Virus record (IMG/VR): IMGVR_UViG_2582581241_000004 | DNA from: a virus | Length of the DNA stretch: 47,094 nucleotides | Direction: 5' to 3' (one strand) | In this document: positions 3,010 through 37,439 of the stretch, one piece after another | Layout: each line of letters starts with the position of its first letter | Numbering within the stretch: position 1 is the stretch's first letter | Position numbers and translations under genes: made by a program | The notes under the pieces: generated by a model | What the model was told of the DNA's origin: nothing | Database searches by the model: none | What the model saw: only the letters and a program-made list of their open reading frames with translations

Positions 3010-3057
3010 AAAAACCATTTTGAATTTTCGCACGCGTGATTCACCTGTCGAATCATG
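3010..3057 (+). promoter_or_regulatory. Repeated promoter-like motif, copy A, abutting the ruvC-like ATG
   Basis: AAAAACCATTTTGAATTTTCGCACGCGTGATTCACCTGTCGAATC-ATG; 41/48 identical to 36201-36248 and colinear with 9575-9619. Confidence 0.7.
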
Positions 3058-4786: not shown

Positions 4787-5220
4787 TCGGGGCGCTGTTC
4801 GGAAGCTTCGGACTTCTCGCCGGCGTCGGCGGCGCCGCGGCGTCCTTCGTCTATCTGCCGCCGGGGTTCAAGCAGGCCGGCATCGCGGCGGCCGTCGCCA
4901 TCGGCGTCGGCACGGCGTCGTTCGGCGCGGGATGGCAGCACGGGTTCGATTCCGCCGACGCCAAGCGGAAGACCGAGATCGCGGCGATCAACGACGCCAA
5001 TTCGAAGCTCGTCGCAAAAGCGAGGAACGACGCGGACGCCAAGGCGCGGGCGGATATCGCCGCCGCGCAGGAGGAGGCCGCGAAGGACGCCGCCGTCGAA
5101 CGCGAAGCCAACGCGCAATTGCAGGCGGCGCTGTCGGTATTGGGCAAGGCTCCAAAGGCCGAGCGCGACCGCAAGGCGCCTGCGTTCCTCGTCTGCGCCG
5201 CAAGAGGAGACTGCAAGTGA
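4783..5220 (+). CDS. Inner-membrane spanin (Rz-like)
   Basis: ATG 4783 after GAGG; N-terminal hydrophobic segments then an Ala-rich coiled coil; followed by an overlapping lipoprotein gene. Confidence 0.6.
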   Translation: MIGALFGSFGLLAGVGGAAASFVYLPPGFKQAGIAAAVAIGVGTASFGAGWQHGFDSADAKRKTEIAAINDANSKLVAKARNDADAKARADIAAAQEEAAKDAAVEREANAQLQAALSVLGKAPKAERDRKAPAFLVCAARGDCK

Positions 5221-15411: not shown

Positions 15412-15987
15412 GTGATCGTCATCGGTTTCAAAGGCAAGAAGAACAGCGGCAAGTCCACCGTCGCCGACTATCTGGTCGCGCGCCACGGGTTCGTTCGGCA
15501 GAAGATGTTCGCGCCGGGCAAGGAAATGCTGCGCGTCTACCTGCGGTATCGGGGCGTCGCCGAGGATCGCATCGAGCGCATGATCGAAGGCGACCTCAAG
15601 GAGGTTCCGGTGTGGGAACTCTTCGACAAGACGCCGCGCTGGGTCATGCAGAAGTGGGGAACCGAGGGAAGCCGCGATCTGATCGACAAGCGGTTCTGGT
15701 CGGCGGCCTGGTTCGACCACCTTGAGCTGACGACGAACGAGGGCGCCGGCCGCCGCATCCTCGTTGACGACTGCCGATATATCGAGGAAGTCGAGGCGAT
15801 GAAGGCGACGGGATCGGCGTGGATCGTCAACGTCGTGCGCCCCGGTCTCGCTGCAAACGACGACCACGCGTCCGAGGAGCAGGCGTTCCCGCACGATCTG
15901 GAGATCGTCAACGACGGGACGGTGGACGACCTGCACGGGAAGGCCGACGCGCTGCTGCGGGATTTGTCGTGGGCCGTGGCGGCGTGA
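15412..15987 (+). CDS. Deoxynucleoside monophosphate kinase
   Basis: IGFKGKKNSGKST P-loop; FA..K; TPRWVMQKWGTE..R; DDCRY.EE; HASE. Confidence 0.85.
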   Translation: MIVIGFKGKKNSGKSTVADYLVARHGFVRQKMFAPGKEMLRVYLRYRGVAEDRIERMIEGDLKEVPVWELFDKTPRWVMQKWGTEGSRDLIDKRFWSAAWFDHLELTTNEGAGRRILVDDCRYIEEVEAMKATGSAWIVNVVRPGLAANDDHASEEQAFPHDLEIVNDGTVDDLHGKADALLRDLSWAVAA

Positions 15988-20559: not shown

Positions 20560-22056
20560 ATGAGCATCGACGACACTCCCTCCACCCTCGCAATCGGACG
20601 CGCCGTCCTCGACGAGAATCTGATGCTCCGGTGTCAGATCGTCTCCGGCGGCGCCATCGGCCCCGGCACGATCCTGAAGGCCACCGGCTACGAGAAGACG
20701 CAACGAATCCCGTGGTCTGAGGATTCCCGATCCAATTCAGGACGTTCCGGGAGCGTGGGATACCGCCTCGAGGCGGACGCGCTCTATGCGCTCCAGCGAA
20801 TCGCCATCGGTTCCTCGAAGGCCGCCGACTTCTGGCTGTCGACCTTCGGCGCGCCGCGACTGCTCGAACGGAAGGAATTCGACGAGCAGCGCGAGTTGTT
20901 GTGGGCCGACCAGTTCGCCGAGGTCCTCCGTCGTCGCATGGAGTTGGCGCGCAGCAACGACATCCGTGACCAGGAGCAGAGACGCGTCCTGGGAGCCCTC
21001 CCGAAGCTGCGGGGCACCGAAAAGCAGATCGCTTGGGCGTCCGATCTCCGCAGGGCTTGGGCACTCGAACTCGTTACCGGCTTCGCGGCGCAGGTCGAAG
21101 CCGAAGAGCGCGGAATCTACGCCGACAGGGTATTCCGGATGGCGCCGGACAGATATGCGGTTTCCGCCGTCACCGGCGCCGGCGGCGACACGCCGGAGGG
21201 GCGCGGCGCGATCATCGACGCGGTAAAGAAGGCCGATCAGGCGAAGTTCTGGATCGACAACCGCGGCGGATTCTCCACCGTCCTCGACGCCGTAATGAAG
21301 GCCGCCGAGCCGGTCCCCGAGGAGGAGATCGTCAGGATCGCCGCCACCGCTCGCCGCGAGCTCGAGGCCAAGGCCGAGGCGACGCTGTCTCCCGAGGATC
21401 CGGACACGACGATCCTCACCGAGATCACGCTCGACGGGAAGGAGCTTCGCGTCAAGTCGGAAGCCTACATCGAGGGGCTGGGCGATGTCCTGAAGCCGCT
21501 CGGTTTCGCGTGGGACAAGGACGCGCGCCGCTGGTCGCGGAAGCTCGGTGCCCTTTCCGACGACCCGATCGACAGGATCGCCGAGACGGCTGCGAAGCTC
21601 GTCGACGCCGGGATGCCGGCGCTGACTTGGGACGAGGAGGCTCGCAGGCGCGTCGTCGCCAATTCCTGGAAGCCCGAAATCCGCAAATGGATCCACGCCT
21701 ACATCGGCAAGAAGGGCTCCACGAAGTTCGGCGTCGTCTATCCCTACGACGAGAACCACTACGAGCAGGCGCGGCGACTGCGCGGCGCGGAATACGTCTC
21801 CAGCGGATTCTTCAAGGTCCCCGTCTCCTCTTACGAAGAGATCGTCGACTTCGCCGAGCAATACGGGTTCGGATTCACCCCTGGCGCCCGCCAACTGATC
21901 GACGCCGCGCGCGCCGCCGACGGCCATCGCATCACGGTGGCGCCGGCCATTCCGGAAATCGCCGTTGCCGCATCCATGCCCGATGTGCCGCTGCCGCTGG
22001 CCGTTCCGACGGACGTGACTATCGACCCCGACCTGCTGGACGACGCGGCGGCGTGA
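20560..22056 (+). CDS. Hypothetical protein (L.GTEKQIAWA motif; possible HARP-like segments)
   Basis: GAGG RBS; LRGTEKQIAWASDLR, AKFWIDNR, GFAWDKDARRW. Confidence 0.65.
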   Translation: MSIDDTPSTLAIGRAVLDENLMLRCQIVSGGAIGPGTILKATGYEKTQRIPWSEDSRSNSGRSGSVGYRLEADALYALQRIAIGSSKAADFWLSTFGAPRLLERKEFDEQRELLWADQFAEVLRRRMELARSNDIRDQEQRRVLGALPKLRGTEKQIAWASDLRRAWALELVTGFAAQVEAEERGIYADRVFRMAPDRYAVSAVTGAGGDTPEGRGAIIDAVKKADQAKFWIDNRGGFSTVLDAVMKAAEPVPEEEIVRIAATARRELEAKAEATLSPEDPDTTILTEITLDGKELRVKSEAYIEGLGDVLKPLGFAWDKDARRWSRKLGALSDDPIDRIAETAAKLVDAGMPALTWDEEARRRVVANSWKPEIRKWIHAYIGKKGSTKFGVVYPYDENHYEQARRLRGAEYVSSGFFKVPVSSYEEIVDFAEQYGFGFTPGARQLIDAARAADGHRITVAPAIPEIAVAASMPDVPLPLAVPTDVTIDPDLLDDAAA

Positions 22057-22114
22057 GTCCGCTGCGGCCAACGACAATTTCGAGTTTCGCGTAACGAGTA
22101 AAGGAGTCCAATCA

Positions 22115-22546
22115 ATGCAGTTTATCGAGCATCTCACCATCACGACGGGCCACACGCGCATGTCGCCGCGCTCCGAGGTGGACGACAAGATCATCCAATT
22201 CATCAGCGACTCCATCGCGTCGGGCGGCGCTCTGGGCGTCGATTGGGCGATCGAAATGATCCGTTCCGACGGCGCCGGATATGTCTTCGACATCCTCTGG
22301 CGTGGCAATCATGCCATCAGATCCTGGATGTGCCTCGACGCCGCTGCGTCCGACAGGATGTGGGCCGAGGCCAACAGCGAAGACCTGATCCTGTTCGCCG
22401 GAACGCCGAAGCAGCCGCGCACCGCGCCGTGGCTCGCCGTCGCGATGACGTGGGACGCGTTGAGAATGCCCTTCAAAATTCAAGCCCAGGCCGGCGATCT
22501 CGAGCGCTGCGTCGCGTGGACCCTCATCGAGTCGCGGGCGCACTGA
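22115..22546 (+). CDS. Hypothetical protein
   Basis: AAGGAG RBS. Confidence 0.6.
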   Translation: MQFIEHLTITTGHTRMSPRSEVDDKIIQFISDSIASGGALGVDWAIEMIRSDGAGYVFDILWRGNHAIRSWMCLDAAASDRMWAEANSEDLILFAGTPKQPRTAPWLAVAMTWDALRMPFKIQAQAGDLERCVAWTLIESRAH

Positions 22547-24000
22547 TGACCTGGACATCGACCACCGCGCTCATGGCGCACCAGATCGATGCCGTCGCGA
22601 AGCTGATTCCGACGCGCATCGGCGCCCTCTTCGCCGATCTCGGAACGGGGAAGAGCCGCATCCTGCTGGAGCTCGCCCGCCTTCGGCAACTGAAATTCAA
22701 CTATCTCGTCTGGTTCTGCCCCGTCAGCGCGATGGAGAACACCCGCCGTGAGATCCTCAAGCACACCGACATTCCCGCCGACATGATCTACGTGTTCGGT
22801 CCGAAGACGAACGTGGAGACCATTCCACTCGACCGCTGCGTCTACATCGTCGGCATCGAGTCGATGCAGTCGTCGAACCGCATCTTTCGCGCCGTCGACA
22901 AGCTCATCACCGAGCAGAGCTACGTCGCCGTCGACGAGAGCACGTATATCAAGGGCGCCTTCTCCCGCAGGACGAAGCGCATCACGGGCCTTTCCGAGCG
23001 CGCCCGTTATCGCTGCGTGATGACCGGCACGCCGCTGACGCAGGGCGCCGTCGATCTCTACGCCCAGATGCGTTTCCTCTCTCCGAAGATCCTCGGCTAC
23101 CAGTCGTTTGGCGCCTTCGGCGCAAATCACCTCGAATATCGGATGGTCCGCATGCCGGGCCGGCGCAATCTGGTCCGCACCGATCATGTCGTGCGGGCTC
23201 ACAATGTCGAGTATCTCGCCGCCAGGATCGCTCCTTATACGTATCAGATCCGAGCCGAAGAATGCCTCGATCTGCCCGGCGCGATCCACGAGACCCGCTG
23301 GTTCGCCATGACCAAGGCGCAGCGCCGTCTCTATGAGCAAGTGAAGGAACAGATCCTCCGCGAGGAGGAAGAGAACATGATGAATCCGATGAATTCCATC
23401 TGGATCTTCAGGCTGTTCTCCGCCCTCCAGGCCGTCATCTGCGGATACCACGGGATTTCCAAGCAGGAAATGGTGCGCGTCGAGCACGATCGCGTCGAGA
23501 ACATGCTCGCCGTCATCTCCGAAATCCCCGAGGACGAGCGCATCGTCGTCTGGAGCAAATACCTCCCGGCGGCCGCCGACATCAAAGCGGCGCTGGAAAA
23601 CCGCTACGGCGCCGGATGCGTCGCCACCTTCACCGGTCCGACGGCGAACACCCGCGAATCCGAGCTCGCGGAATGGAAGGACGGGAAGCGTCGCTTCCTC
23701 GTCGCCACGCAGCAATCCGGAAGCCACGCGCAAACGTGGATCGAGGCGGCCTTCGTCATCTTTTACGCCGATGGATTCAAATTCAGCGAACGCGAGCAGG
23801 CCGAGAAGCGAACGATGCGCTTCGGACAGACTCGGAAGGTCCGCTACGTCACGCTGCGCTGTTCCGACAGCATCGACGAGAAGATCGGATCCGCGATCGG
23901 CGGCAAGCGCGACACGCTGAGGGAGTTCAAGCGCCAGGTCGATGTCTACCGGGCGCAAGGACTCAAGGCGAAGATCGTCGAAGCGATCAAATCCCTGTAA
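22546..24000 (+). CDS. SNF2-family helicase/ATPase
   Basis: ATG 22546; HQ..AV, FADLGTGKS, VAVDEST.IK, MTGTP, DLYAQ.RFL, QAEKR..R.GQ. Confidence 0.88.
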   Translation: MTWTSTTALMAHQIDAVAKLIPTRIGALFADLGTGKSRILLELARLRQLKFNYLVWFCPVSAMENTRREILKHTDIPADMIYVFGPKTNVETIPLDRCVYIVGIESMQSSNRIFRAVDKLITEQSYVAVDESTYIKGAFSRRTKRITGLSERARYRCVMTGTPLTQGAVDLYAQMRFLSPKILGYQSFGAFGANHLEYRMVRMPGRRNLVRTDHVVRAHNVEYLAARIAPYTYQIRAEECLDLPGAIHETRWFAMTKAQRRLYEQVKEQILREEEENMMNPMNSIWIFRLFSALQAVICGYHGISKQEMVRVEHDRVENMLAVISEIPEDERIVVWSKYLPAAADIKAALENRYGAGCVATFTGPTANTRESELAEWKDGKRRFLVATQQSGSHAQTWIEAAFVIFYADGFKFSEREQAEKRTMRFGQTRKVRYVTLRCSDSIDEKIGSAIGGKRDTLREFKRQVDVYRAQGLKAKIVEAIKSL

Positions 24001-24015
24001 ATAAAAGGAGTATGA

Positions 24016-24462
24016 ATGATGTTTGTGTTTTCGAACATGGGCCAAAAGCTCGTCGATACGAGCTACTGGGCGAGTGAACACGCGCTGATGGGGTTTGTCT
24101 ACATCAGCGTAAACGCCGGAGCGGCTCGATTGCTGCTGCCGCGCGTGCAGGAATCGCATCTTCCGGACATCGGATCCGCGAATGAGGTCGTCATTTCATT
24201 CGCGAGCCGGTTCGATCCGCGCAAGGATCCGAGCATCGAAATCATGTTCGACGACGGATCGGCGAATCCGTTCTGCCTCTTCATTTCTCGCGATCAATGC
24301 GACTGCTGGGCCAGCCTTTCAGCCGCGAAATCCATCCCCTTCTCGGTCGTGACGCAGGGGAATGGAGAAGTGTTCGCCTGCGAGGCGAAAGTCCGCAAGG
24401 TCCGCAGAATCCCGTGCCTATTGCCGTGGAATGCCTCGCACGCGAATTCGGTTCGGAGGTGA
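24016..24462 (+). CDS. Hypothetical protein
   Basis: AAGGAG RBS; TSYW.SE, S.NAGA.RLLLP, E.MFDDG...PF. Confidence 0.65.
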   Translation: MMFVFSNMGQKLVDTSYWASEHALMGFVYISVNAGAARLLLPRVQESHLPDIGSANEVVISFASRFDPRKDPSIEIMFDDGSANPFCLFISRDQCDCWASLSAAKSIPFSVVTQGNGEVFACEAKVRKVRRIPCLLPWNASHANSVRR

Positions 24463-24905: not shown

Positions 24906-25196
24906 TCAGCGATCCTTGGTCGGCGCTCGCACTTTCTTTGCCGTGGACTTCTTCGGCGGCGCCTTTTTGGCGGGCGCCTTTCGGATCACGGCCTTCTTCG
25001 ACATCGGAGCCTTCACGGGCTCCGGCTTCCGGGCGGCGGCGATGATTGCTTCGCGGCGTTGCAGTTCGGACTCGACGGCTTTTCGTATGAAAGCCGTTCT
25101 CTCCTCGTCCTCGGCAAGCACGGCGGATATCCGGTCGACGGTCCCTTCCGGGAAACGTCCAAGTATGTCCTCCGAGAACAACTTCTTTCGACCCAT
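24906..25196 (-). CDS. Ribbon-helix-helix-like DNA-binding protein with basic tail
   Basis: ATG 25196; MGRKK...RFPEGT.DRI.A.L...E.RT.FIR.AVE.EL.RRE, then K/A/P-rich tail. Confidence 0.65.
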   Translation of the reverse strand: MGRKKLFSEDILGRFPEGTVDRISAVLAEDEERTAFIRKAVESELQRREAIIAAARKPEPVKAPMSKKAVIRKAPAKKAPPKKSTAKKVRAPTKDR

Positions 25197-25218: not shown

Positions 25219-25261
25219 CTTATATAGGTTATTGACGCTTCCAATGTCAATCTTATATAAG
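25219..25261. promoter_or_regulatory. Overlapping divergent promoters with two CTTATATA(A/G)G boxes
   Basis: Minus strand TTGACA-N17-CTATAT (25250 to 25222); plus strand TTGACG 25232 with TATAAG 25256; boxes at 25219-25228 and 25252-25261. Confidence 0.65.
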
Positions 25262-25297: not shown

Positions 25298-25480
25298 ATG
25301 TGCACTCATTCATACTCATACACCGTCAACTTCCGCACGATCGAAGGAGAGACGCACTCGAAGGTCTTCGTCGACGACCTCGCCGCTGCGGAATCCTATG
25401 CGACAGAACTGTCGTCGTGCATCGACGTCGATGTCGAATCCATCGAGATCGACGAGCAGGAACTGCTTGGAAATCGCTGA
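25298..25480 (+). CDS. Small acidic hypothetical protein, first gene of the Cas-containing operon
   Basis: AAGGAG RBS, ATG 25298. Confidence 0.55.
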   Translation: MCTHSYSYTVNFRTIEGETHSKVFVDDLAAAESYATELSSCIDVDVESIEIDEQELLGNR

Positions 25481-25493
25481 AACGGACGCCGCC

Positions 25494-26396
25494 ATGATCC
25501 ACCTCGGTCTCACGATCCCCGAAAAGAAGGCCCGCATCGAGGCCTACTGCCGAGAGAACGGCGTCGATCACGTCGTCATGCTCTCGCCGGCCAAGTTCGC
25601 CTTCGAGGTGGACGCGCCGCGCTTCAAGAGCGTCGATTGGCCTGAGACGATCATGTATCGGACGTTCTACCCCTTGCTCAAGGAGATCGACGCCAACACG
25701 CTCGTCGTCGTCAACGAGAGCCTGCGCGATCGCAACCGCAATTGCCTCACCTACAATTGCATGCGGCATTTCCTGTCGCAGACCCGGCGCGTCCTCGTCT
25801 TCCAGTGGCTGCCGCTGATCGAGGACATGAGCGACTTCATGATCCTCTTCGACCTGGCCACCAGTAGCCTCCGAAAGGCGTTCCCTTACGGCACGGATCT
25901 CCTTTCCGAGGTGGAGATCGAGATCGTCGATAGGACGCCCTTCTTCGCCGGCGTCCCTGTCGAGACGGACGCGAAGACCAAGGCCAAATACGCAGCCGAG
26001 CGCGAGAAGATGTTCGCAAACCTCGGCATGGGCGATCCGCACACGATCCCGCGCAATCTCTACCTCATCGGCGGGAAGGCCAAGGCAGCAGCGGCGCCAA
26101 AGACGGCGATCGTCGCGCGCAACTCGCGGCTCAAGATCGACCGGTTGGCGACGTTCCGCCAGGACGCCTATCCGGACGGCCCCTACGCAATGCTGGAGCT
26201 GCCGCACGTCTTCATGGACTTCGCCGATTTCTCGGCGCTGTCGGGGCAGACGGAATTCGACGTGATGCTCGCCGATCTCAAGGTCGACGACTGGTATTTC
26301 CGGCGCTTCAACGCCTGGTCGAAAAGGATCCAAGATGGCTACCGCGATCTACGACAGTTCGGTGGACGTTCTCACGGCCGCGCGCAAGCGGCTTGA
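25494..26396 (+). CDS. Hypothetical protein, possibly an inactivated SF2 helicase-like domain
   Basis: LVVVNES (DExx-like) and F..LP.I.D..DF.IL; no Walker A seen. Confidence 0.5.
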   Translation: MIHLGLTIPEKKARIEAYCRENGVDHVVMLSPAKFAFEVDAPRFKSVDWPETIMYRTFYPLLKEIDANTLVVVNESLRDRNRNCLTYNCMRHFLSQTRRVLVFQWLPLIEDMSDFMILFDLATSSLRKAFPYGTDLLSEVEIEIVDRTPFFAGVPVETDAKTKAKYAAEREKMFANLGMGDPHTIPRNLYLIGGKAKAAAAPKTAIVARNSRLKIDRLATFRQDAYPDGPYAMLELPHVFMDFADFSALSGQTEFDVMLADLKVDDWYFRRFNAWSKRIQDGYRDLRQFGGRSHGRAQAA

Positions 26397-27462
26397 GTTC
26401 GTCTTCGACAATTTCAGGGAGGTCCACGTCTCGATCTCCGGCGGCAAGGATTCGACCGTCCTCGCCCATCTCGCGCTGATCGAGGCGAGGAAGCGCAATC
26501 GCAAGGTCGGCCTGTTCTTCCTCGATGAGGAGGTCGTCTACGAAAGCACGGTCCGCCAGATCGAATATCTGATGGAGCTTTACCCGGAGAACACCAACCG
26601 GCTGTGGCTCCAGATCCCGTTCTGTTTGACCAACGCCGTCTCTCTGACGGAAGGCCAGCTCGTCGCCTGGGAGCCCGGCCGCCACAAGGACTGGATGCGC
26701 CCGAAGAAGGCCTATTCGATCCACGCCGCCCCTTGGGACCGCGAGAAGCAGACCGTCGGCAATAAGTCGAAGGGCTTTGGATTCTACGATGTCATCGAGA
26801 ATTGGGAACGCTGCCATTCCGGCGTCGCCTATCTCGTCGGGATGCGCGCGACGGAACACACGAATCGCTGGCTGGCCGTCGTGCAGCACCCAGTCGATGT
26901 CGGCGGCGAGATGGTCCATTGGGCGACGAAGAACGGCGCGAACGTGAATTTCAACCCGCTCTACGATTGGCAATACTGGGACGTCTGGAAATACATCCAT
27001 CAGGAGAATCTCCGATATTCCCGCGTCTACGACTGGCAGTTCCGCAAGGGCACGCCGTTCCATCAATGCCGTGTCTCGTCGCTGATCCATGAGAAGAGCT
27101 TCCGCTCGCTCTGCGACCTGCCTGAGTTCGAGCCGAAGACCTACGAGCGGCTCTGCGAGCGGATCAAGGGCATCTCGTTCGCGTCCGAGACCGGCAAGGC
27201 GTCGCGCATGTTCGGCGTCTCCAAGCTGCCGAAGAACTACGACTCATGGCGCGGATATCGGGACTTCCTTCTCGCGACGTATCCGGACGCGGAGAAGAAA
27301 GGGATCTTCGTGAAGCGCTTCGCGAAGCATCTCGACAACGACTACGTGGCCCGCCAGCAGTGCCGCCAGCTCGTCCTCAACGACTACGAGAACAATCTTC
27401 CGATCGCGAACAAGGAAGATCCTCGCGTCGCCCTCATCCAATACTATCGGGAGAACCTGTGA
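26335..27462 (+). CDS. ibrA: PAPS reductase (CysH/DndC superfamily), IbrA-like
   Basis: V..AAR.RL...FDNF..V.VSISGGKDS (PP-loop), FFLDEE, VGMRA.E..NR, PLYDW...DVW.YI, Y..VYD, RVS. Confidence 0.8.
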   Translation: MATAIYDSSVDVLTAARKRLEFVFDNFREVHVSISGGKDSTVLAHLALIEARKRNRKVGLFFLDEEVVYESTVRQIEYLMELYPENTNRLWLQIPFCLTNAVSLTEGQLVAWEPGRHKDWMRPKKAYSIHAAPWDREKQTVGNKSKGFGFYDVIENWERCHSGVAYLVGMRATEHTNRWLAVVQHPVDVGGEMVHWATKNGANVNFNPLYDWQYWDVWKYIHQENLRYSRVYDWQFRKGTPFHQCRVSSLIHEKSFRSLCDLPEFEPKTYERLCERIKGISFASETGKASRMFGVSKLPKNYDSWRGYRDFLLATYPDAEKKGIFVKRFAKHLDNDYVARQQCRQLVLNDYENNLPIANKEDPRVALIQYYRENL

Positions 27463-28073
27463 TGAACATCCTTATCGAAAGCGCCGAGCAGTTCAAGACA
27501 ATGCGCGGCAATCTGAAGACTCCGACGATCAAGAGCCGCCACGGGCAGGTTCCCGTCCCGGCGACCGTCACGCTGCTCGTCGCCAGGAGCCTCCTCAAGG
27601 CCAACAACTACAACCCGAACAGCGTCCCAGACGAGAAGATGAAGCTCTTGAAAATGAGCATTCTCGACAACGGATTCTGCTTTCCGGTCGTGACGATCTG
27701 GAGCGACGATGACGAATGCTTCGTCATCGTTGACGGCTTCCATCGATACATGATCACCGGCCCGAAATGGCTGGACATGGAGTTCGTCCCGATCGTCGTC
27801 CTCGATCACGACGTCTCGAAGCGCATGTATGCGACGGTTCAATTCAACAAGGCGCGGGGGACGCATCAGGTCGATCTCGACGCCGACCTGATCCGCGCCC
27901 TGATCGAGCAGGGCAAATCCGAGGACGAGATCTCCGATCACCTCGGCATCGATCTCGACACCATCCACCGCTACAAGCAGCTCACGGGCATCGCGGACCT
28001 CTTCAAGAATTCCGCCTGGTCTCCGAGCTGGAACGCCGTCGAAGGCATTCGCGAGGAGAACATCCATGGTTGA
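27462..28073 (+). CDS. ibrB: ParB/Srx-domain protein, IbrB-like
   Basis: ANNYNPN.V...M.LL..SI..NGF..PVV, IVDGFHR, AT..FN.ARG.H, C-terminal HTH. Confidence 0.8.
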   Translation: MNILIESAEQFKTMRGNLKTPTIKSRHGQVPVPATVTLLVARSLLKANNYNPNSVPDEKMKLLKMSILDNGFCFPVVTIWSDDDECFVIVDGFHRYMITGPKWLDMEFVPIVVLDHDVSKRMYATVQFNKARGTHQVDLDADLIRALIEQGKSEDEISDHLGIDLDTIHRYKQLTGIADLFKNSAWSPSWNAVEGIREENIHG

Positions 28074-28707
28074 GTGGAACTATGGCGGCGCCCATCTGCG
28101 CCACGACATGACCGGCATCATCGAACTGCCGAACGACTCCAAGGTCCAGGTCGCAGATCTGACCAAGGAATTGCCGGAATTCATGATGCTGGCGGACTGC
28201 CTCTTCATCGACCCGCCGTGCAGCAACGGAAACCTGAGGTCTTTTCATACGAAGGCCGACATGGACCTGATGTACGAGTTCAAGGATTTCGAGGAGGCGC
28301 TGTTCCGACGGATCGAGACGATCGGGCCGAGGGACGTCTTCATCGAGGTCTTCAAGTCGAACAAGGCGTCGTTCATCGAGCGGCTGGAGAAGCTCTACGG
28401 CTCGGTCCGCGTCCACGACAGCTTCTACTACAACAAGCCGGCCAACAGATGCTGGATCCTGCAAGCCAGCAGGCGGCCGACATTCCCGGAATTCGACATC
28501 GGCGGAATCGACGAAGCCAAGGCGATCCAGCGCATCTGCTCGGGCTTCGAATTCGACACCATCGGCGACCTCTGCATGGGCAAGGGACTCGTCGGCAAGC
28601 ACGCCTATCTCGCGGGACGGCGGTTCGTCGGAACGGAACTCAATCGCAAGCGCCTCGCCGTCCTGGTCGATTTCATCCGCGAGCAGGAGACGAAGAAGGC
28701 CGCGTGA
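28066..28707 (+). CDS. Small amino-methyltransferase-like protein
   Basis: FIDPPC followed by GDLCMGKG.VG...F.GTELN (SAM-binding motif). Confidence 0.7.
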   Translation: MVEWNYGGAHLRHDMTGIIELPNDSKVQVADLTKELPEFMMLADCLFIDPPCSNGNLRSFHTKADMDLMYEFKDFEEALFRRIETIGPRDVFIEVFKSNKASFIERLEKLYGSVRVHDSFYYNKPANRCWILQASRRPTFPEFDIGGIDEAKAIQRICSGFEFDTIGDLCMGKGLVGKHAYLAGRRFVGTELNRKRLAVLVDFIREQETKKAA

Positions 28708-28742
28708 ATCGACGTTTTCGAGTGAGTGAGTGGAGTTTTTAC

Positions 28743-29654
28743 GTGTTCAACAATAGCAGCACACAATTCGCGTGGAAGATCGCGTCCGGAAATACCGTCT
28801 ACGAACCCCCGATTCCCAAGCGCGGGGAGCGATACGCCGAGGGAGACCGCTGCTGGCTGTGCGGCGGTCCGACCGGCGGCCAGGGATGGCGCAAGGAAGA
28901 CGCCATCGCGGCCACGTTCACAAATCATAACTTGGCGGCCGCCCACGGCGCCGTCGCCGTCTGCCAGTCGTGCACCGCCCTGTCGCGGTCCGAGACGTTT
29001 CAGGGCATCGTCAAGGCGCGGAATCTGGACGTCAAAACGTGGACGCAGGCCGGCTGGCATTCGTACAGCCACTTCTTCGCCGAGCCGAATGTCTACGAAT
29101 GCCCGGTCCCGTCCCGCGTCCGCGAGATCCTGCTGTCGCCGCCGGAAGGACGATGGCTGCTCGGAGTGAATCCGAGCGGCAAGAAGCACACGATATTCCG
29201 CGCTCCGATCTGCACGGGCAAGGAGTGGGGCGTGCAATTCGACGAGGCGCGAATCTATTCGACGACCGACGAATTCGCGGCCTGCCTCGCGGATTTCGAA
29301 CGTATGACCGCGCTCGGATTCTCGAAGGACGACGTCTCCAGCGGACGCCAGAGCCACGGTTCGATCCTGCGCGCCGGCGTCTCCGCATGGGCGTCCGCCG
29401 ATGGCGCGATGAAGATCTGGCGCCGCGAGCGTCCCGACCTCCTCGATCTCGTCGCCTATTGCGCCCGCTCGGCGTCCGCCCATGGCGTCGAATTCAAGGC
29501 GCGGGATTCCCCTCCCCCGCCTGCGGTCGCCGATCCGCCGGCGCCGCCTCCGATCGTCGAACCGGCATCCGTCGAACCGGCGAAACCGAAGCGCGGAAGG
29601 AAGGCGGCGAAGCCCGTCAAGCCGACCAACCCCGTCCAACTGAGTCTGTTTTGA
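28743..29654 (+). CDS. csf1: Type IV Cas large subunit Csf1 (Cas8-like)
   Basis: GTG 28743 after GGAG; CWLCG...FTNH......VCQSC Zn motif, LL.PP, KKH; first gene of the csf cluster. Confidence 0.7.
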   Translation: MFNNSSTQFAWKIASGNTVYEPPIPKRGERYAEGDRCWLCGGPTGGQGWRKEDAIAATFTNHNLAAAHGAVAVCQSCTALSRSETFQGIVKARNLDVKTWTQAGWHSYSHFFAEPNVYECPVPSRVREILLSPPEGRWLLGVNPSGKKHTIFRAPICTGKEWGVQFDEARIYSTTDEFAACLADFERMTALGFSKDDVSSGRQSHGSILRAGVSAWASADGAMKIWRRERPDLLDLVAYCARSASAHGVEFKARDSPPPPAVADPPAPPPIVEPASVEPAKPKRGRKAAKPVKPTNPVQLSLF

Positions 29655-29664
29655 GGAGTCTCTC

Positions 29665-30099
29665 TTGCTCTACAATTTCGACACCCACGACGACCGGCTC
29701 GCCGCAGCCGCGCTCGTCCTCTACGCTGCCTACAAATCCCGCGACCGCCGTCGCTTCGCCGTCTCCACGGACATGTGGGACCGGATCGAGCGCTTCGTGA
29801 AGGACGCGGCGAAGAGATCGCGCACGCTTCCGGCTTTCGTGGAAGCTCTGAAGCCGCGCCTGTGCTGCGGATCGATCTCGCCGCGCTGGCTGTCGGCGGA
29901 TCCCTTCGACGCCGCCTGCGAGCGGCGCGGAACCGAATTCCTCTCGCATCTCCTCGAACGCCACGACGGCGCGGCAGTGGTGCGGAAGGCATACGACGAG
30001 ACGGCCTGCGTCGTCCTTCTCGTTCGTGACCGTCTCGAGCGGGAAAAGCCCGTCGAGTCGAACAGCAACGACGCGATCAACGTGAAGGAGTCTGTGTAA
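29665..30099 (+). CDS. cas11: Type IV-B small subunit (Cas11-like)
   Basis: About 144 aa, helical, between csf1 and csf2; GAGGAG RBS; positional call. Confidence 0.55.
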   Translation: MLYNFDTHDDRLAAAALVLYAAYKSRDRRRFAVSTDMWDRIERFVKDAAKRSRTLPAFVEALKPRLCCGSISPRWLSADPFDAACERRGTEFLSHLLERHDGAAVVRKAYDETACVVLLVRDRLEREKPVESNSNDAINVKESV

Positions 30100-31091
30100 T
30101 GGGTAACAAATCGTATCGTCTCGACGGCCTTTTCAGCCTGAAGTCGCCGCTTTCGCACATCAGCGAGACCGTCTCGAACTCGTCCTATCTCGTCCAGGAG
30201 CGCGTCATCCAGAATGACGGCAGCGTCGCCGACGTCTTCGTCTACAGCGGAAACGCCTGGCGCGGCCAGCTTCGCGACCTGATGGCCCGCGATCTCCTCG
30301 ACCGCCTCGGCGACGACAACGGCCCGGCGCGCGTCGGCCTGGACACGTTCTCGCTGCTGTTCTCCGGCGGACGCATCGGCGGCACGCAGACGACGGACAT
30401 CGGGCAGGCGCGTCGCCTGCGTTCCGCGCTGCCGTCGATCGCGCTGCTCGGCGGCGGCGTCGGCAATCAGCTTCTCGCCGGCAAGGCCCGCATCGGCAAC
30501 TGCTATCCGCTCTGCCGTGAAGCGTCGGGCATCCTTCCGGCGTCCTTGCGCGCCGACGCCGCCCTCGTCGAATACGCGGACTGCACGCAAAGCAAGGAGC
30601 ATTCGCGCCGCGACGACAAAAAGATCGAGACCATCAACGGCTATCTCTTGCCGGCGGCCGCGATCGAGGAGACGCCGAAGAAGGGGAAGAAAGCCAAGGC
30701 CGACGACGACGCGCCGGCGACCGACCAGATGAGGATCCGCATGGAGCTCCTCTCGCCGGGCGTCAGACTCCACACCTGGATCTCGATCGAGACGGCGACC
30801 GAGGAGGAGCTCGGCTGTCTCGTCGCCGCCCTGAAGCTCTTCTCCGACGCGCCGCACATCGGCGGGCAGTCCGCGAGAGGCTACGGGCTGGTGGACCTGG
30901 ACTACGCGCTGACCGACCGCACGACCGGCGCCGTCGTCGAGCATTTCGTGACCGTCGCCGACGGCGCCTGCATGCTTTCTCCGGAGGCCTCGGAGGCCCT
31001 GGCGGCCTACGGAAGCCATGTCGGCGCGCTGAAGGAAACCGCCATCGCGCCGAACGGCGGCGTCCTGGCTCTTCTGGAGGGCGCGGCGTGA
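30099..31091 (+). CDS. csf2: Type IV Cas7-family backbone Csf2
   Basis: SPLSH, SGNAWRGQLRD, LFSGG, LR..LP.IALLGG.VGNQ...GK, QM...E, IGG.SARGYG. Confidence 0.85.
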   Translation: MGNKSYRLDGLFSLKSPLSHISETVSNSSYLVQERVIQNDGSVADVFVYSGNAWRGQLRDLMARDLLDRLGDDNGPARVGLDTFSLLFSGGRIGGTQTTDIGQARRLRSALPSIALLGGGVGNQLLAGKARIGNCYPLCREASGILPASLRADAALVEYADCTQSKEHSRRDDKKIETINGYLLPAAAIEETPKKGKKAKADDDAPATDQMRIRMELLSPGVRLHTWISIETATEEELGCLVAALKLFSDAPHIGGQSARGYGLVDLDYALTDRTTGAVVEHFVTVADGACMLSPEASEALAAYGSHVGALKETAIAPNGGVLALLEGAA

Positions 31092-31672
31092 GCGTCTACA
31101 TCGCGAAAATCAACACGCCGCGCGGGCCGATCTCCTCGATCCATTGCGCGCTCTACGCCTGCCTGCCGCCAAGGCCGGAGGGAAGCAAGCGTCCCTTCGT
31201 CTGGCGCGTCGCCGACGGCGGACGTTCGATCGTGTTCGTCTCGTCGGAGATGCCGATCGTCCCGCATGCGACGATCTCGCTCGAGGCGGGGCGGTCCTAC
31301 GAGTTCGCCATCACTTATACGCGCGACAAGCACGTCGGAAAGAAGAAAGCCCGTCACCTCGTCGAGATCAACTCGATGCTCGATCTGCGTGATCGCATCT
31401 CGCATTTCGCCGGCTCCTACGGTGGAAGCGTCGGATTCGTGCGCCACGAACACATGCGGACCCTGCATGTGCGCCGGCAGAACGAGCATCTCGAAATGCC
31501 GATCGTGGACGCCTATGGGCGCGTCGTGGTCGAGGATCCCGTCGCGTTCGAGCAGGTCGTCCTCCAGGGCGGACCGGGCGGCGCCAAGGTCTACGGATGC
31601 GGCATGTGGTGGCTGCCGGAAATCATGGAGCCGGCTCTTTCGCCGGCGAAACTCGAAAGGATCGCCGCATGA
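31088..31672 (+). CDS. cas6: Cas6-like RAMP (Cas6e-type G-rich loop)
   Basis: H..LY, FVWR, G...V.DP..F..V...G.GGAKVYGCGM. Confidence 0.6.
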   Translation: MSVYIAKINTPRGPISSIHCALYACLPPRPEGSKRPFVWRVADGGRSIVFVSSEMPIVPHATISLEAGRSYEFAITYTRDKHVGKKKARHLVEINSMLDLRDRISHFAGSYGGSVGFVRHEHMRTLHVRRQNEHLEMPIVDAYGRVVVEDPVAFEQVVLQGGPGGAKVYGCGMWWLPEIMEPALSPAKLERIAA

Positions 31673-32310
31673 AACCGACTCTCATCCGAGCCGTCCTGGT
31701 CAACGGCTACATCACCAGCAACCCCTGGACGCCGACCATCGACGGCATCGTGGCCTACGCCTCGCAGCTTCGAAAGCACGGCGACGAGTTCTATGTCCAC
31801 CGCGATTCCGAAATGGTCCCGGTGGACGACCTGCCGATCGAGAAGGCCAAGTTCAACGGACGCTGGTGGTATTCGTGTTCGACGCCGACGCCCGTCGATT
31901 CCGTCGGACGCCAGAAGCGAAACTACCACCGCCGCTTCGACGACCAGTATGAGGGCTATCTCGTCTCGGGCGTCGGCAAGGTGCTGACCAAGGCCGGCCC
32001 CTACAAAGCGGCTCGCCTCGCCGACACGCGTACGATCTGCCGAGCCGTCGAGTGGCACGTCGTCGGCGACCGTGACGCGCTGCGGGATCTCCTTGGCGAC
32101 ATCGATCAGATCGGAGCCGCCCGCGCCGTCGGCTTCGGCTCCGTCGTCGAGTGGCAGTTCGAAGAGGGCGACGCCGAAATCGCAAGACGCCGGCGTCCGC
32201 TTCCGCTCGAATACGCGGAGAGCATCGGCATCGCAGGGCGCAGGATGTCGTGGGGCATCGTGCCGCCGTCGCGCCTGCCGGAGTCGATCTGCGAGTGCGT
32301 CATGCCGTGA
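31669..32310 (+). CDS. csf3: Type IV Cas5-family Csf3
   Basis: ATG 31669; IDGIVA, LP, WWYSCS, GPYK, W..VGD...LR.LL..I..IG..R..GFG.V..W, RRPLP. Confidence 0.82.
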   Translation: MKPTLIRAVLVNGYITSNPWTPTIDGIVAYASQLRKHGDEFYVHRDSEMVPVDDLPIEKAKFNGRWWYSCSTPTPVDSVGRQKRNYHRRFDDQYEGYLVSGVGKVLTKAGPYKAARLADTRTICRAVEWHVVGDRDALRDLLGDIDQIGAARAVGFGSVVEWQFEEGDAEIARRRRPLPLEYAESIGIAGRRMSWGIVPPSRLPESICECVMP

Positions 32311-32316
32311 ATCATG

Positions 32317-32356
32317 GCCGTCGCCGGGTTCCGACAGGGATTCGGCGACGGCTTTT
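32317..32356 (+). terminator. Intrinsic terminator closing the Cas operon
   Basis: GCCGTCGCCG...CGGCGACGGC perfect 10-bp outer stem followed by TTTT. Confidence 0.65.
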
Positions 32357-32378
32357 CGATGGCGGAACCGCATCCGCA

Positions 32379-32495: not shown

Positions 32496-33593
32496 ATGTC
32501 CAGCGTTCTCACGAATTCATCCGCGATCACCGCGCTCCAGAACCTGCGCTCGACGCAGTCCGCCCTGGCGGACACACAGCACCGCGTCGCTACCGGCCTC
32601 AAGGTTTCCACCGCCGCCGACAACCCTTCGACATGGGCCGTCGCGGAAACGATGAAATCCGATCGAGGCGTGGTGTCGACGATCGCGGATTCGCTCGGGG
32701 TGAGTTCGCAGATTGTCGGCGTCGCGATGGCGGGCGTCGAAAGCACGATCTCGGTGATGAACCAGATCAAGAGCGCCATCGCACAAGCGGCACAGCCGGG
32801 AGCCGACAAGGCGAAGATTGCCACGAGCCTTGTCGGCCTGAGCGCGCAACTGCGATCGATTATTGCGTCCGCTTCGTTCAACGGAATAAACCTACTCGAC
32901 GGATCGCAGTCCTCGATCAGCTTCGCGTCCGGATACGTCGATGGGAATGGGTCGGGATCGGAACTGCGATCACTGGGCTTCACGCCTGCGGCGTTAGTAG
33001 AAAATAAAACGGCAATTGCATCCTTAAACGCAAGTAACATCACTGTAAACAATGCATATCAAGCTGGACTGCTATCCTCAAGCAACAAATCGGATATATT
33101 CGATTCTGGTAGTTCTTCGAATCTCGGGTGGATTCCAACCTATGGATTCGAGCCAAACGAGTCGATATTTCCAAATAGCCCTACATATTACGATACATAC
33201 TCCTATGATCTGGCCAATAATGTCATAAACGTAAACTACTATGCCAATTTCGCGGAGATATTTCCGGATTCGTCTGGTGGCTCCGGACTTGGAACCGTCT
33301 TGCTCAACCCTGTCATTGAAGGGAAAAGCCTCGATGTAGCCGATGCGGTTATTTCCCGCCTTACCGACTACGCCTCCACGCTCGGCTCGACAAAGACGAC
33401 CATCGACTCCCAGCGCGGCTTCATGCGGACCCTCGGCGACGCCATGGACCAGGGCATCGGCTCGCTGGTGGACGCCGACCTGAACGCGGAATCCACGCGA
33501 TTGCAGGCATTGCAGACGCAGCAGCAGCTAGGCGTCCAGTCGCTATCTATCGCCAACAGGGACGGCGACATCGTCCTGAAGCTGTTCCAGTGA
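32496..33593 (+). CDS. fliC: Flagellin (alphaproteobacterial type)
   Basis: MSSVLTNSSA..ALQ.L...TGLKV..A.DN, ASFNG.NLL, LVDADLN.ES.RLQALQ.QQQLG.Q.LSIAN. Confidence 0.93.
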   Translation: MSSVLTNSSAITALQNLRSTQSALADTQHRVATGLKVSTAADNPSTWAVAETMKSDRGVVSTIADSLGVSSQIVGVAMAGVESTISVMNQIKSAIAQAAQPGADKAKIATSLVGLSAQLRSIIASASFNGINLLDGSQSSISFASGYVDGNGSGSELRSLGFTPAALVENKTAIASLNASNITVNNAYQAGLLSSSNKSDIFDSGSSSNLGWIPTYGFEPNESIFPNSPTYYDTYSYDLANNVINVNYYANFAEIFPDSSGGSGLGTVLLNPVIEGKSLDVADAVISRLTDYASTLGSTKTTIDSQRGFMRTLGDAMDQGIGSLVDADLNAESTRLQALQTQQQLGVQSLSIANRDGDIVLKLFQ

Positions 33594-36200: not shown

Positions 36201-36248
36201 AAAAATCGCTTTGAATTTTCACGCGCATAATTCACCTGTCGAATCATG
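36201..36248 (+). promoter_or_regulatory. Repeated promoter-like motif, copy B, abutting the tnpB ATG
   Basis: 41/48 identical to 3010-3057, including ATTCACCTGTCGAATCATG. Confidence 0.7.
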
Positions 36249-37439
36249 ATCAAGCGCGGCTTCCGATACCGGCTCGACCCGACCGACGAACAGGAACTCA
36301 TGTTCCGGAAGTTCGCGGGCGTCTGCCGCGCCGTCTACAATGCCGCGCTCCATCAACGCGAAGTATTCTGGCGGCAGCATCTTCGGACGGAAGGAAGGCA
36401 CGTTTCCTACGTCGGACAGGCTGCGGAACTGACCGCGCTTCGCGCCGAGTTCGACTGGATCAGGGAAGTCTCCCAAGCCTGCGAGCAGCAGGCGCTGCGC
36501 GACCTCGACAATGCGTTCCAGCGGTTCTTCGACGGCGTTTCCGGCTATCCGACCCCGCGCCGGAAGGGCAAGAACGACGGTTTCCGCTTCCAAGGACGCA
36601 ATGTCGAAGTCGAGAAGCTCAATCGCAATTGGAGCCGGGTGAAGCTTCCGAAGATCGGATGGGTGCGCTTCCGCGACACACGACCAATGGTCGGGAAGCT
36701 GAAGAACGTCACCGTCTCTCTCGACTCGCTCGGATGGCACGTCTCCTTCGCCCGCGAGATCGAGCATGAAGCTCCGGCGAATATCGCGCCCGCAGTCGGC
36801 ATCGATAGAGGAGTCGCCAATTCCATCGCCATGTCGACCGGCGAAATGGATTCGATCGGCAAGGAGCGGCTCGCCGTCCTCGACCGGCGTCGCAGGAAGC
36901 ACCAGCGCGATCTGTCCCGGCGCAAGCGCGGATCGCAGCGCTACGGCAAGACCCGCAAGCGGGTCGCCGCCGTCGCCGCCAAGGGGGCTCGCGTCCGCGA
37001 GCATTTCAACCATGTCCGGACGACGCGCATCGTGCGGAACTTCGGCACGGTCTGCATCGAGGATCTGAACATCGCGAACATGACGGCGTCCGCGAAGGGC
37101 ACGGTCGAAGAACCGGGAAAGAACGTCGCGCAAAAGGCGGGACTGAACCGCTCCATCCTCGAGCAGGGTTGGGGTCAATTCGAGGAATTCCTCACCTACA
37201 AGCTCGCCGCTTCCGGCGGCGTGCTGGTGAAGGTCGATCCGCGCAACACTTCGCGGAAATGCTCCAACTGTGGCCATATCGACGCTCGCAATCGCGAAAG
37301 CCAAGCATCGTTCCGATGCGTCGAATGCGGACACGAGGCTCATGCCGACGTGAATGCGGCCATCAACATTCTTCAGGCCGGAACGCGGCCTTCGGAAGAG
37401 GCGAAAGCCCCACGCCGAAAATCTCGGAAGGCCGCCTAG
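36246..37439 (+). CDS. tnpB: TnpB RNA-guided nuclease, catalytic D-E-D intact
   Basis: YRLDP...G.CR.VYN; GIDRG (RuvC-I D), IEDL (II E), TS..CS.CG/C..CG Zn finger, ADVNAAINI (III D). Confidence 0.93.
   Translation: MIKRGFRYRLDPTDEQELMFRKFAGVCRAVYNAALHQREVFWRQHLRTEGRHVSYVGQAAELTALRAEFDWIREVSQACEQQALRDLDNAFQRFFDGVSGYPTPRRKGKNDGFRFQGRNVEVEKLNRNWSRVKLPKIGWVRFRDTRPMVGKLKNVTVSLDSLGWHVSFAREIEHEAPANIAPAVGIDRGVANSIAMSTGEMDSIGKERLAVLDRRRRKHQRDLSRRKRGSQRYGKTRKRVAAVAAKGARVREHFNHVRTTRIVRNFGTVCIEDLNIANMTASAKGTVEEPGKNVAQKAGLNRSILEQGWGQFEEFLTYKLAASGGVLVKVDPRNTSRKCSNCGHIDARNRESQASFRCVECGHEAHADVNAAINILQAGTRPSEEAKAPRRKSRKAA

Follow-up and report, generated by a model that had tools for sequence, protein, structure and literature searches.

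Organisation of the locus

The window analysed here is the whole 47,094-nt stretch of the IMG/VR virus record IMGVR_UViG_2582581241_000004, and the locus of interest is a run of ten genes in which a type IV-B-like Csf effector is combined with an IbrA/IbrB pair, a methyltransferase and a degenerate helicase. The window forms the right half of a ~87-kb myovirus prophage with terminase, portal, tail sheath, tape measure and baseplate genes. No att repeat was found for this prophage, and neither csf2 nor ibrA was detected in the 60 related genomes searched. For comparison, ~165-170 related loci were gathered via a Csf2 alignment, a hel alignment and protein look-up; single-sequence Csf2 locus searches gave no matches, so that alignments were required.

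An original prediction, made from the letters of the window, had described ten co-oriented, tightly packed genes. This arrangement was confirmed, with all ten open reading frames (ORFs) on the + strand between 25298 and 32310 and every junction either an overlap or a gap of ≤35 nt, and the predicted identities, including csf1, cas11, csf2, the cas6-like gene and csf3, were borne out by profile and structure searches. The first ORF (25298..25480) encodes an acidic orphan protein of 60 aa behind a good ribosome-binding site, for which no homologue but itself was found. It is followed by a core of four genes, namely hel, encoding a degenerate SNF2-fold protein of 300 aa (25494..26396), ibrA (26335..27462; 375 aa), ibrB (27459..28073) and a gene for a compact methyltransferase of 213 aa (28066..28707). 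The remaining five genes are csf1, the type IV large subunit (28743..29654, alternative start 28704), cas11, the small subunit (29665..30099), csf2, the Cas7 backbone (30099..31091), a Cas6e-like gene (31088..31672) and csf3, which is Cas5-like (31669..32310). Judging from the GGAG in front of it, GTG 28743 is probably the start of csf1, instead of 28704.

A terminator expected near 32317 was recovered as a probable intrinsic terminator on the + strand (32316..32357), in which a hairpin of 17 pairs (32316-32353; − 33.5 kcal/mol, z − 6.8) is followed by four U. In the closest relatives this position, directly after csf3, is held by cysH. At the other end of the predicted operon, putative divergent promoters (25219..25261) contain the palindrome CTTATATA(A/G)G twice, at 25219 and 25252; the 5.1-Mb genome has ten matches to it in all, and these two are spaced by 33 nt. 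The predicted promoter at 25232 is plausible, as a − 35 TTGACG and an AT-rich − 10 box without its last T are visible, but a sigma-70 consensus scan made no call there.

The enzyme core

The hel family comprises at least 538 proteins. The AlphaFold2 model of the window's member (pLDDT 92) has the SNF2/SF2 two-RecA fold, with a Z of 18.2 and a root-mean-square deviation of 4.0 over 282 residues to CSB; the top rows of the structure search are all SNF2 remodelers and the likeness spans nearly the whole length of the protein. Both RecA-like lobes of an active SNF2 ATPase are therefore present, whereas its GxGKS/T Walker A and DExx Walker B are not: Walker A has shrunk to G-x5-K and the DE of Walker B has become an invariant NE (40/40). 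Given these broken motifs, hel most likely encodes a dead motor, and the degenerate helicase of the original prediction stands.

IbrA consists of a PP-loop adenine-nucleotide alpha-hydrolase domain (PF01507) with a DUF3440 tail (PF11922), and shares the fold of adenosine 5′-phosphosulfate (APS) and 3′-phosphoadenosine 5′-phosphosulfate (PAPS) reductases and of FAD synthase (Z 15.7). Its PP-loop SGGKDS is invariant. No cysteine is invariant among 55 IbrA sequences, the best kept, C343, being Val or Ala in 10 of them, and no CC or CxxC cluster motif was found in the protein. The invariant PP-loop and the lack of an invariant cysteine point to adenylation rather than sulfur transfer, and the same argument has been published for CasCysH (PMC8175902), the short PAPS-reductase-like protein of type IV-B loci. 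The two are homologous (HHalign 99.6%, 228 columns), and on this alignment IbrA would be a longer sister of CasCysH, yet a distinct family. The original prediction had equated IbrA with the CysH-like gene of type IV-B loci, which did not hold: the short CasCysH is a separate family, which 26 of 34 csf-linked lineages encode next to IbrA and which the window lacks.

IbrB is a ParB/Srx protein with a C-terminal helix-turn-helix (HTH). Its ParB_N and HTH matches are weak in Pfam, its match to phrog_2159 is strong (E 2e-43), and the motifs DGFHR and NKARG are conserved. A protein with PAPS_reduct and DUF3440 domains followed by a ParB-like protein is the arrangement that defines the IbrA/IbrB pair, and it is found here.

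The same pair invites a comparison with DNA phosphorothioation of the Dnd/Ssp kind, which the original prediction had raised through DndC and in which IbrA would act as DndC and IbrB as DndB. IbrA does have the PAPS-reductase fold and matches DndC and BrxP profiles weakly (E 7e-6 to 6e-3), and DndB is a ParB-superfamily protein (PMC12839542). The cysteine pattern of IbrA described above speaks against such chemistry, as does the finding that neither a desulfurase nor DndD/E nor SspB/C is encoded among the ten genes (Pfam, NCBIfam, PADLOC), although a host desulfurase could act in trans. The analogy is thus weak, and we consider phosphorothioation very unlikely.

The fourth core protein was missed by Pfam and was placed in N6_N4_Mtase clusters by ESM Atlas features (0.98) and structure (TM 0.7-0.9). 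Its motifs are DPPC ... DLCMGKG, so that motif IV (DPPY-like) precedes motif I (DxxxGxG), which is the order of the beta class of amino-methyltransferases. Among 68 relatives, 55 carry DPPW and 8 DPPC.

The Csf genes and the search for guides

The effector half is recognised throughout by PADLOC, with E-values of 3e-38 for csf1 (Csf1_0_IV), 2e-71 for cas11 (typeIV_Cas11), 6e-64 for csf2 and 2e-32 for csf3. The NCBIfam matches of csf1 (TIGR03114, E 4e-9), csf2 and csf3 (TIGR03116, E 2e-15) all fall below equivalog cut-offs, which are themselves based on type IV-A. Csf1 has two CxxC pairs, conserved cysteines and a Pro-rich tail. The best Protein Data Bank (PDB) match of the Csf2 family is the type IV-B Csf2 of 7JHY (E 8e-23), with type IV-C Cas7c nearly tied. 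The Cas6e-like protein is the sole PF08798 match in the genome (E 2e-9, above cut-off); its N-terminal His is conserved in 16/16 aligned sequences and its Gly-rich loop is kept.

In a Csf2 tree, which held no published reference set, the window falls in an alphaproteobacterial clade (Aureimonas, Rhodovulum, Hyphomicrobiaceae) whose other members bear cysH and have no core. About half of this clade (L001-L023, L160-L162) encodes a seemingly intact Cas6e at loci without a neighbouring array, which is commoner than the 'rare exception' of the literature. Among the isolated phages of the collection, Skermania phage SPI1 alone has a Csf2 match (KR011061.1, 33767-34708; 31%), in a protein annotated as hypothetical.

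The predicted absence of an array and of a nuclease was borne out. No CRISPR array, mini-array or conserved flanking RNA was detected in the window, and an Rfam search returned nothing credible. The only array, cas1 and type I-C cas5 of the genome lie ~770 kb away in the host type I-C system (array C9:1805271-1810208, 75 repeats; cas genes to ~1815820), and no host spacer matches the prophage, the genome or the fetched loci over its full length. Two arrangements at related loci deserve separate mention. At L009 a cas6-bearing type IV operon lies between two copies of a 30-bp hairpin repeat (~4-33 and ~4948-4977), one of them followed by GAAAC; the repeat is a candidate single-repeat unit or promoter duplicate. 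At L018, on a viral contig, a short type I-E-like array (15538-15749) lies ~2.7 kb behind a cysH-bearing, cas6-less type IV operon.

A host with a 75-repeat type I-C array makes it worth asking if the effector is an anti-CRISPR sponge, in which Cas6e and a Csf filament would capture or mis-process host CRISPR RNAs (crRNAs) or small RNAs while the enzymes inactivate the RNA or are unrelated. The retained His and Gly loop of Cas6e fit such a role, and type IV-B complexes bind heterogeneous RNA, for which a sponge function has been proposed (PMC8175902). On the other side, none of the host spacers matches the prophage or a fetched locus over its whole length, type IV-B is reported to be negatively correlated with type I-C and a sponge was judged unlikely by the authors of that report (PMC7038947), cas6e is replaced in the sister copy of the locus described below, and the enzyme core is left unexplained. 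We regard a sponge as unlikely.

Recurrence of the core and its two partners

The linkage of ibrA, ibrB and the methyltransferase gene to csf was predicted to recur, and it does. ibrA lies directly 3′ of hel in 95/95 cases, and ibrB and the methyltransferase gene nearly always adjoin, after or before. When hel was clustered into lineages at 70% identity, 30 of the 70 lineages were accompanied by csf only, 22 by a cassette SNF2 gene only, one by both and 17 by neither, the last mostly on short contigs. With at least 6 kb available on each side, the corresponding numbers were 11, 9, 1 and 1. An SNF2 near L040/L062 belongs to an unrelated family (20% identity) and was excluded from these counts. 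The sole lineage with both partners is that of the window. In 21 loci the core is bracketed by csf or cysH genes, so that the cassettes interleave. On the Csf2 tree the core was gained or lost at least 9 times, among deeply diverse Csf2 partners, and the hel tree holds ~4 switches in addition to that of the window. The pairing of csf with the IbrA/IbrB/dead-SNF2 core is a real and recurrent variant, and apparently an unpublished one. As a separate observation, a single SNF2 gene is followed by two hel-ibrA-ibrB sets in tandem, or by an additional ibrA-ibrB pair, in phages L073, L075, L148, L150 and L060/L069/L120.

The alternative partner is also present in the window, upstream of the operon on the + strand, and was overlooked in the original prediction; the ten genes that it delimited stand, but in relatives the system reaches upstream to the equivalent of 20560, and the helicase-like gene starts at ATG 25494. 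The unit (20560-24000) opens with a gene of 498 aa, here called gene X (20560..22056), which stands ahead of SNF2 in 16 SNF2-type Ibr loci among those gathered and at no csf-type locus. By inspection gene X looks HARP-like. Its C-terminal half is similar to the N-terminal regions of phage SNF2 proteins, and the protein shows a weak structural likeness to SNF2-family clusters (TM <0.5). The SNF2-family ATPase behind it (22546..24000, 484 aa; phrog_62, E 4e-75) has Walker A, Walker B and motif III intact and is 48-57% identical to the SNF2 genes directly 5′ of the closest hel relatives; it is the usual motor of the Ibr cassette. An origin of hel by local duplication of this gene was considered. 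HHalign did place K11 and NE of hel opposite Walker A and B of the SNF2 protein, but its score fell short of significance (probability 3.7%, E 0.011), so such an origin is at most a possibility. A protein of 148 aa (24016..24462, +) that accompanies some SNF2-type Ibr cassettes completes the upstream genes, with 36% identity to genes behind the methyltransferase gene in L066, L166 and L167.

The X-SNF2 unit and the core are kept apart by a divergent gene (24906..25196, − strand) and the two palindromic boxes. The product of this gene has a basic tail, belongs to a family of 344 proteins and, from its sequence pattern, is a putative ribbon-helix-helix (RHH) regulator. Its only clear homologue among ~170 fetched loci, in Aureimonas (L002), is likewise divergent and stands upstream of csf1, which suggests, on one comparison, that the core was inserted between a csf promoter and csf1. 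Three further relatives of the regulator lie on contigs too short to be informative about their neighbours.

Ancestry of the locus

The two halves of the operon have different relatives. The closest relatives of Csf2 (58-65% identity) have the order csf1-cas11-csf2-(cas6e)-csf3-cysH and no core, whereas hel groups with SNF2-type cassettes, the nearest of which (60%) reads X-SNF2-hel-ibrA-ibrB-MTase (methyltransferase) and has no csf. The ten genes thus join two cassettes of separate ancestry, and the pattern of relatives indicates that the join in this phage is recent, a feature that also escaped the original prediction. CasCysH is absent: its profile found nothing above 73 bits in the genome, with held-out members scoring 156-228 bits, and the window is the only fully sequenced csf-linked locus of the sample without it.

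A truncated sister prophage on the same contig (L156, G000 C9:890629-908270; ~90% nucleotide identity) retains part of csf2, within which it is interrupted by an IS21-like element, and the whole of csf3, with 93-96% protein identity and no cysH behind csf3. Its cas6e slot is occupied by an unrelated gene of 99 aa with a HAIDRFRER motif and no Pfam match, RNase-like by inspection. Between the two copies dN/dS is 0.10 for csf3 and 0.18 for csf2; csf2 and csf3 are therefore under purifying selection and not obviously decaying.

The recent join raises the question of how much the two halves have to do with each other. They could be linked by regulation only, two independent cargo cassettes having merged under a shared promoter in a phage accessory region, with the core still served by X-SNF2 and the Csf genes doing a separate job or on their way out after the loss of CasCysH. 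The differing ancestries and the intact SNF2 motifs are in line with this, as is the mosaic nature of the region, for example the 99-aa gene in the sister cas6 slot and a flagellin gene after csf3. Yet the same pairing arose repeatedly and is interleaved elsewhere, csf2 and csf3 are under purifying selection, and the core sits between the regulator and promoter on one side and csf1 on the other, divided from SNF2 by a divergent gene. We consider a shared promoter alone to be the main rival reading, though less likely than not.

The flagellin gene suggests a further alternative. Full-length flagellin genes follow csf3 in both prophage copies (window 32496-33593, +; L156 12946-13947), the products being 55% identical with differing cores, and C8 carries two flagellin genes of the host. 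In a parallel to TldR prophages, the Csf complex might silence host flagellin under RNA guidance while phage flagellin takes over. However, a comparison of the prophage and host flagellin upstream regions gave no guide-like match beyond chance matches of 14-15 nt, no match to this flagellin was seen among the other fetched loci, and the terminator lies between csf3 and flagellin. Such silencing is hardly credible here.

A proposed composite system with an exchangeable locator

The interpretation that we put forward, with about an even chance of being right, is a composite phage system in which a modifying core uses a swappable locator, either an SNF2 motor or the Csf complex, and in which IbrA replaces CasCysH. 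The core of dead SNF2-fold protein, IbrA, IbrB and methyltransferase would act on nucleic acid: IbrA would adenylate the substrate at the expense of ATP, the methyltransferase would methylate an exocyclic amine, IbrB would serve as a partner that binds DNA under nucleotide control, and DNA would be held, without translocation, by the dead SNF2 protein. The DNA would be opened or presented to the core by the HARP-like protein and active SNF2 in about half of the phages, and by a type IV-B Csf ribonucleoprotein, in physical contact with the core, in the other half. This prophage may then represent a fresh, independent switch, in which an SNF2-type core was placed under a promoter fronting the csf genes, so that both would be co-transcribed; the short CasCysH would have been lost and its homologue IbrA would fill its place, the old motor persisting upstream as a separate transcription unit. 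The likely purpose would be marking or protection of phage DNA, or repression of competing elements, without cleavage. Support for this composite system comes from a published proposal (PMC8175902) in which a PP-loop enzyme, recruited by the type IV-B complex, AMPylates the nucleic acid held there, and from the recurrence, interleaving and purifying selection described above.

Several findings weigh against it. The X-SNF2 motor is intact at this locus, therefore the core may not need Csf, and the link of the RHH-like regulator to csf is seen at one other locus only. The either/or pattern of partners is clustered on the hel tree and reflects ~4-5 independent switches, so that a Fisher p of 3e-4 overstates it. 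The core is absent from 37/69 tree rows, that is from most of the sampled IV-B-like loci, and the frequent coexistence of IbrA and CasCysH in csf-linked lineages means that the two are not plainly redundant. IbrA occurs in 223 isolated-phage records, whereas searches for hel gave no match among isolated phages, these records included, or among plasmids. Finally, the searches made revealed no array, mini-array, conserved RNA or target.

For the guided writer or silencer of the original prediction, the guide RNA and target searches found no candidate. In its specific form, the Cas6e of the locus would cut an RNA that comes from no array, and Csf carrying this RNA would guide the adenylating and methylating core to DNA sites, as HARP-SNF2 would do elsewhere, and we hold this to be doubtful.

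The Csf/SNF2 alternation predicts a role for Csf, namely presenting or opening DNA for the modifying core, and the window is a natural experiment, with both locators present and CasCysH absent in one prophage of a complete bacterial genome. RNA guidance, if true, would make this a candidate programmable writer, and the specific form given above would be a natural RNA-guided, nuclease-free DNA writer.

Other features of the prophage

TnpB-like genes (phrog_506) occur in the window at 36246-37439 (+) and also at C9:969489 and C9:938987-940147, in the prophage and the sister region; one of them has an upstream 48-nt motif in common with window positions 3010 and 9575. The terminase large subunit (L172 12078-14675; C9:977378-979978) is 866 aa long and contains a possible intein, an internal region of ~260 aa for which the only matches are long terminase profiles.

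Comparison with known systems

With the IbrA/IbrB of E. coli and phages the locus shares the same domain pair in the same order, at ~34% identity to an annotated phage IbrA. The E. coli proteins are described as activators of prophage eib genes, acting in trans. This subfamily differs in that it always occurs with a dead SNF2-fold gene, usually with an N6/N4 methyltransferase gene, and with X-SNF2 or csf in addition. The names IbrA and IbrB are used in PMC4490671 and PMC8813620.

Dnd, Ssp and type 4 BREX systems likewise place a PAPS-reductase-fold enzyme beside a ParB-superfamily protein, but IbrA lacks the conserved cysteines, no sulfur-relay or ATPase partners accompany it, and a methyltransferase is part of the core. 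Types IV-A (DinG) and IV-D (RecD) resemble the locus in having a Csf effector and Cas6 beside a helicase-fold protein. They differ from it in that no array is present here and the place of DinG or RecD is taken by an SNF2 derivative whose Walker B is broken; no active DinG or RecD is encoded among the ten genes, the DinG and RecD profiles not having been run on the whole prophage.

The closest known system is type IV-B itself (Csf1-Cas11-Csf2-Csf3 with CasCysH; Mycobacterium sp. JS623, PDB 7JHY; PMC7937560, PMC8175902). In type IV-B, Csf2 and Cas11 form a filament that assembles on RNA. The four effector genes are common to both, as are the location on a mobile element and the absence of an array, adaptation genes and a nuclease, and the window's Csf2 groups with cysH-bearing loci. 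Type IV-B has been linked to cysH and sometimes to an ADP-PRT gene, and N6-MTase is among the locus labels of one survey (bioRxiv 10.1101/270033). Here, in contrast, the short CasCysH is absent and its homologue IbrA is present, a Cas6e is encoded, for which there are 12 published exceptions within type IV-B (PMC7038947), and the effector shares its predicted operon with the four genes of the enzyme core. No paper was found, within an incomplete coverage of the literature, that joins type IV-B with the IbrA/IbrB/dead-SNF2 core, ParB or a methyltransferase; nor does such a variant appear in the passages of the 2025 classification that were searched (PMC12669027). As late as 2026, a paper described the role of type IV-B as unclear (PMC13676074). 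Guidance of the core by an RNA-loaded Csf complex, if true, would give a type IV-B-derived system its first defined function and would mean that IbrA can replace CasCysH. As this locus departs from canonical type IV-B in two features, lacking CasCysH and having a Cas6, we file it as a type IV-B-derived variant, descended from type IV-B and presumably working like it.

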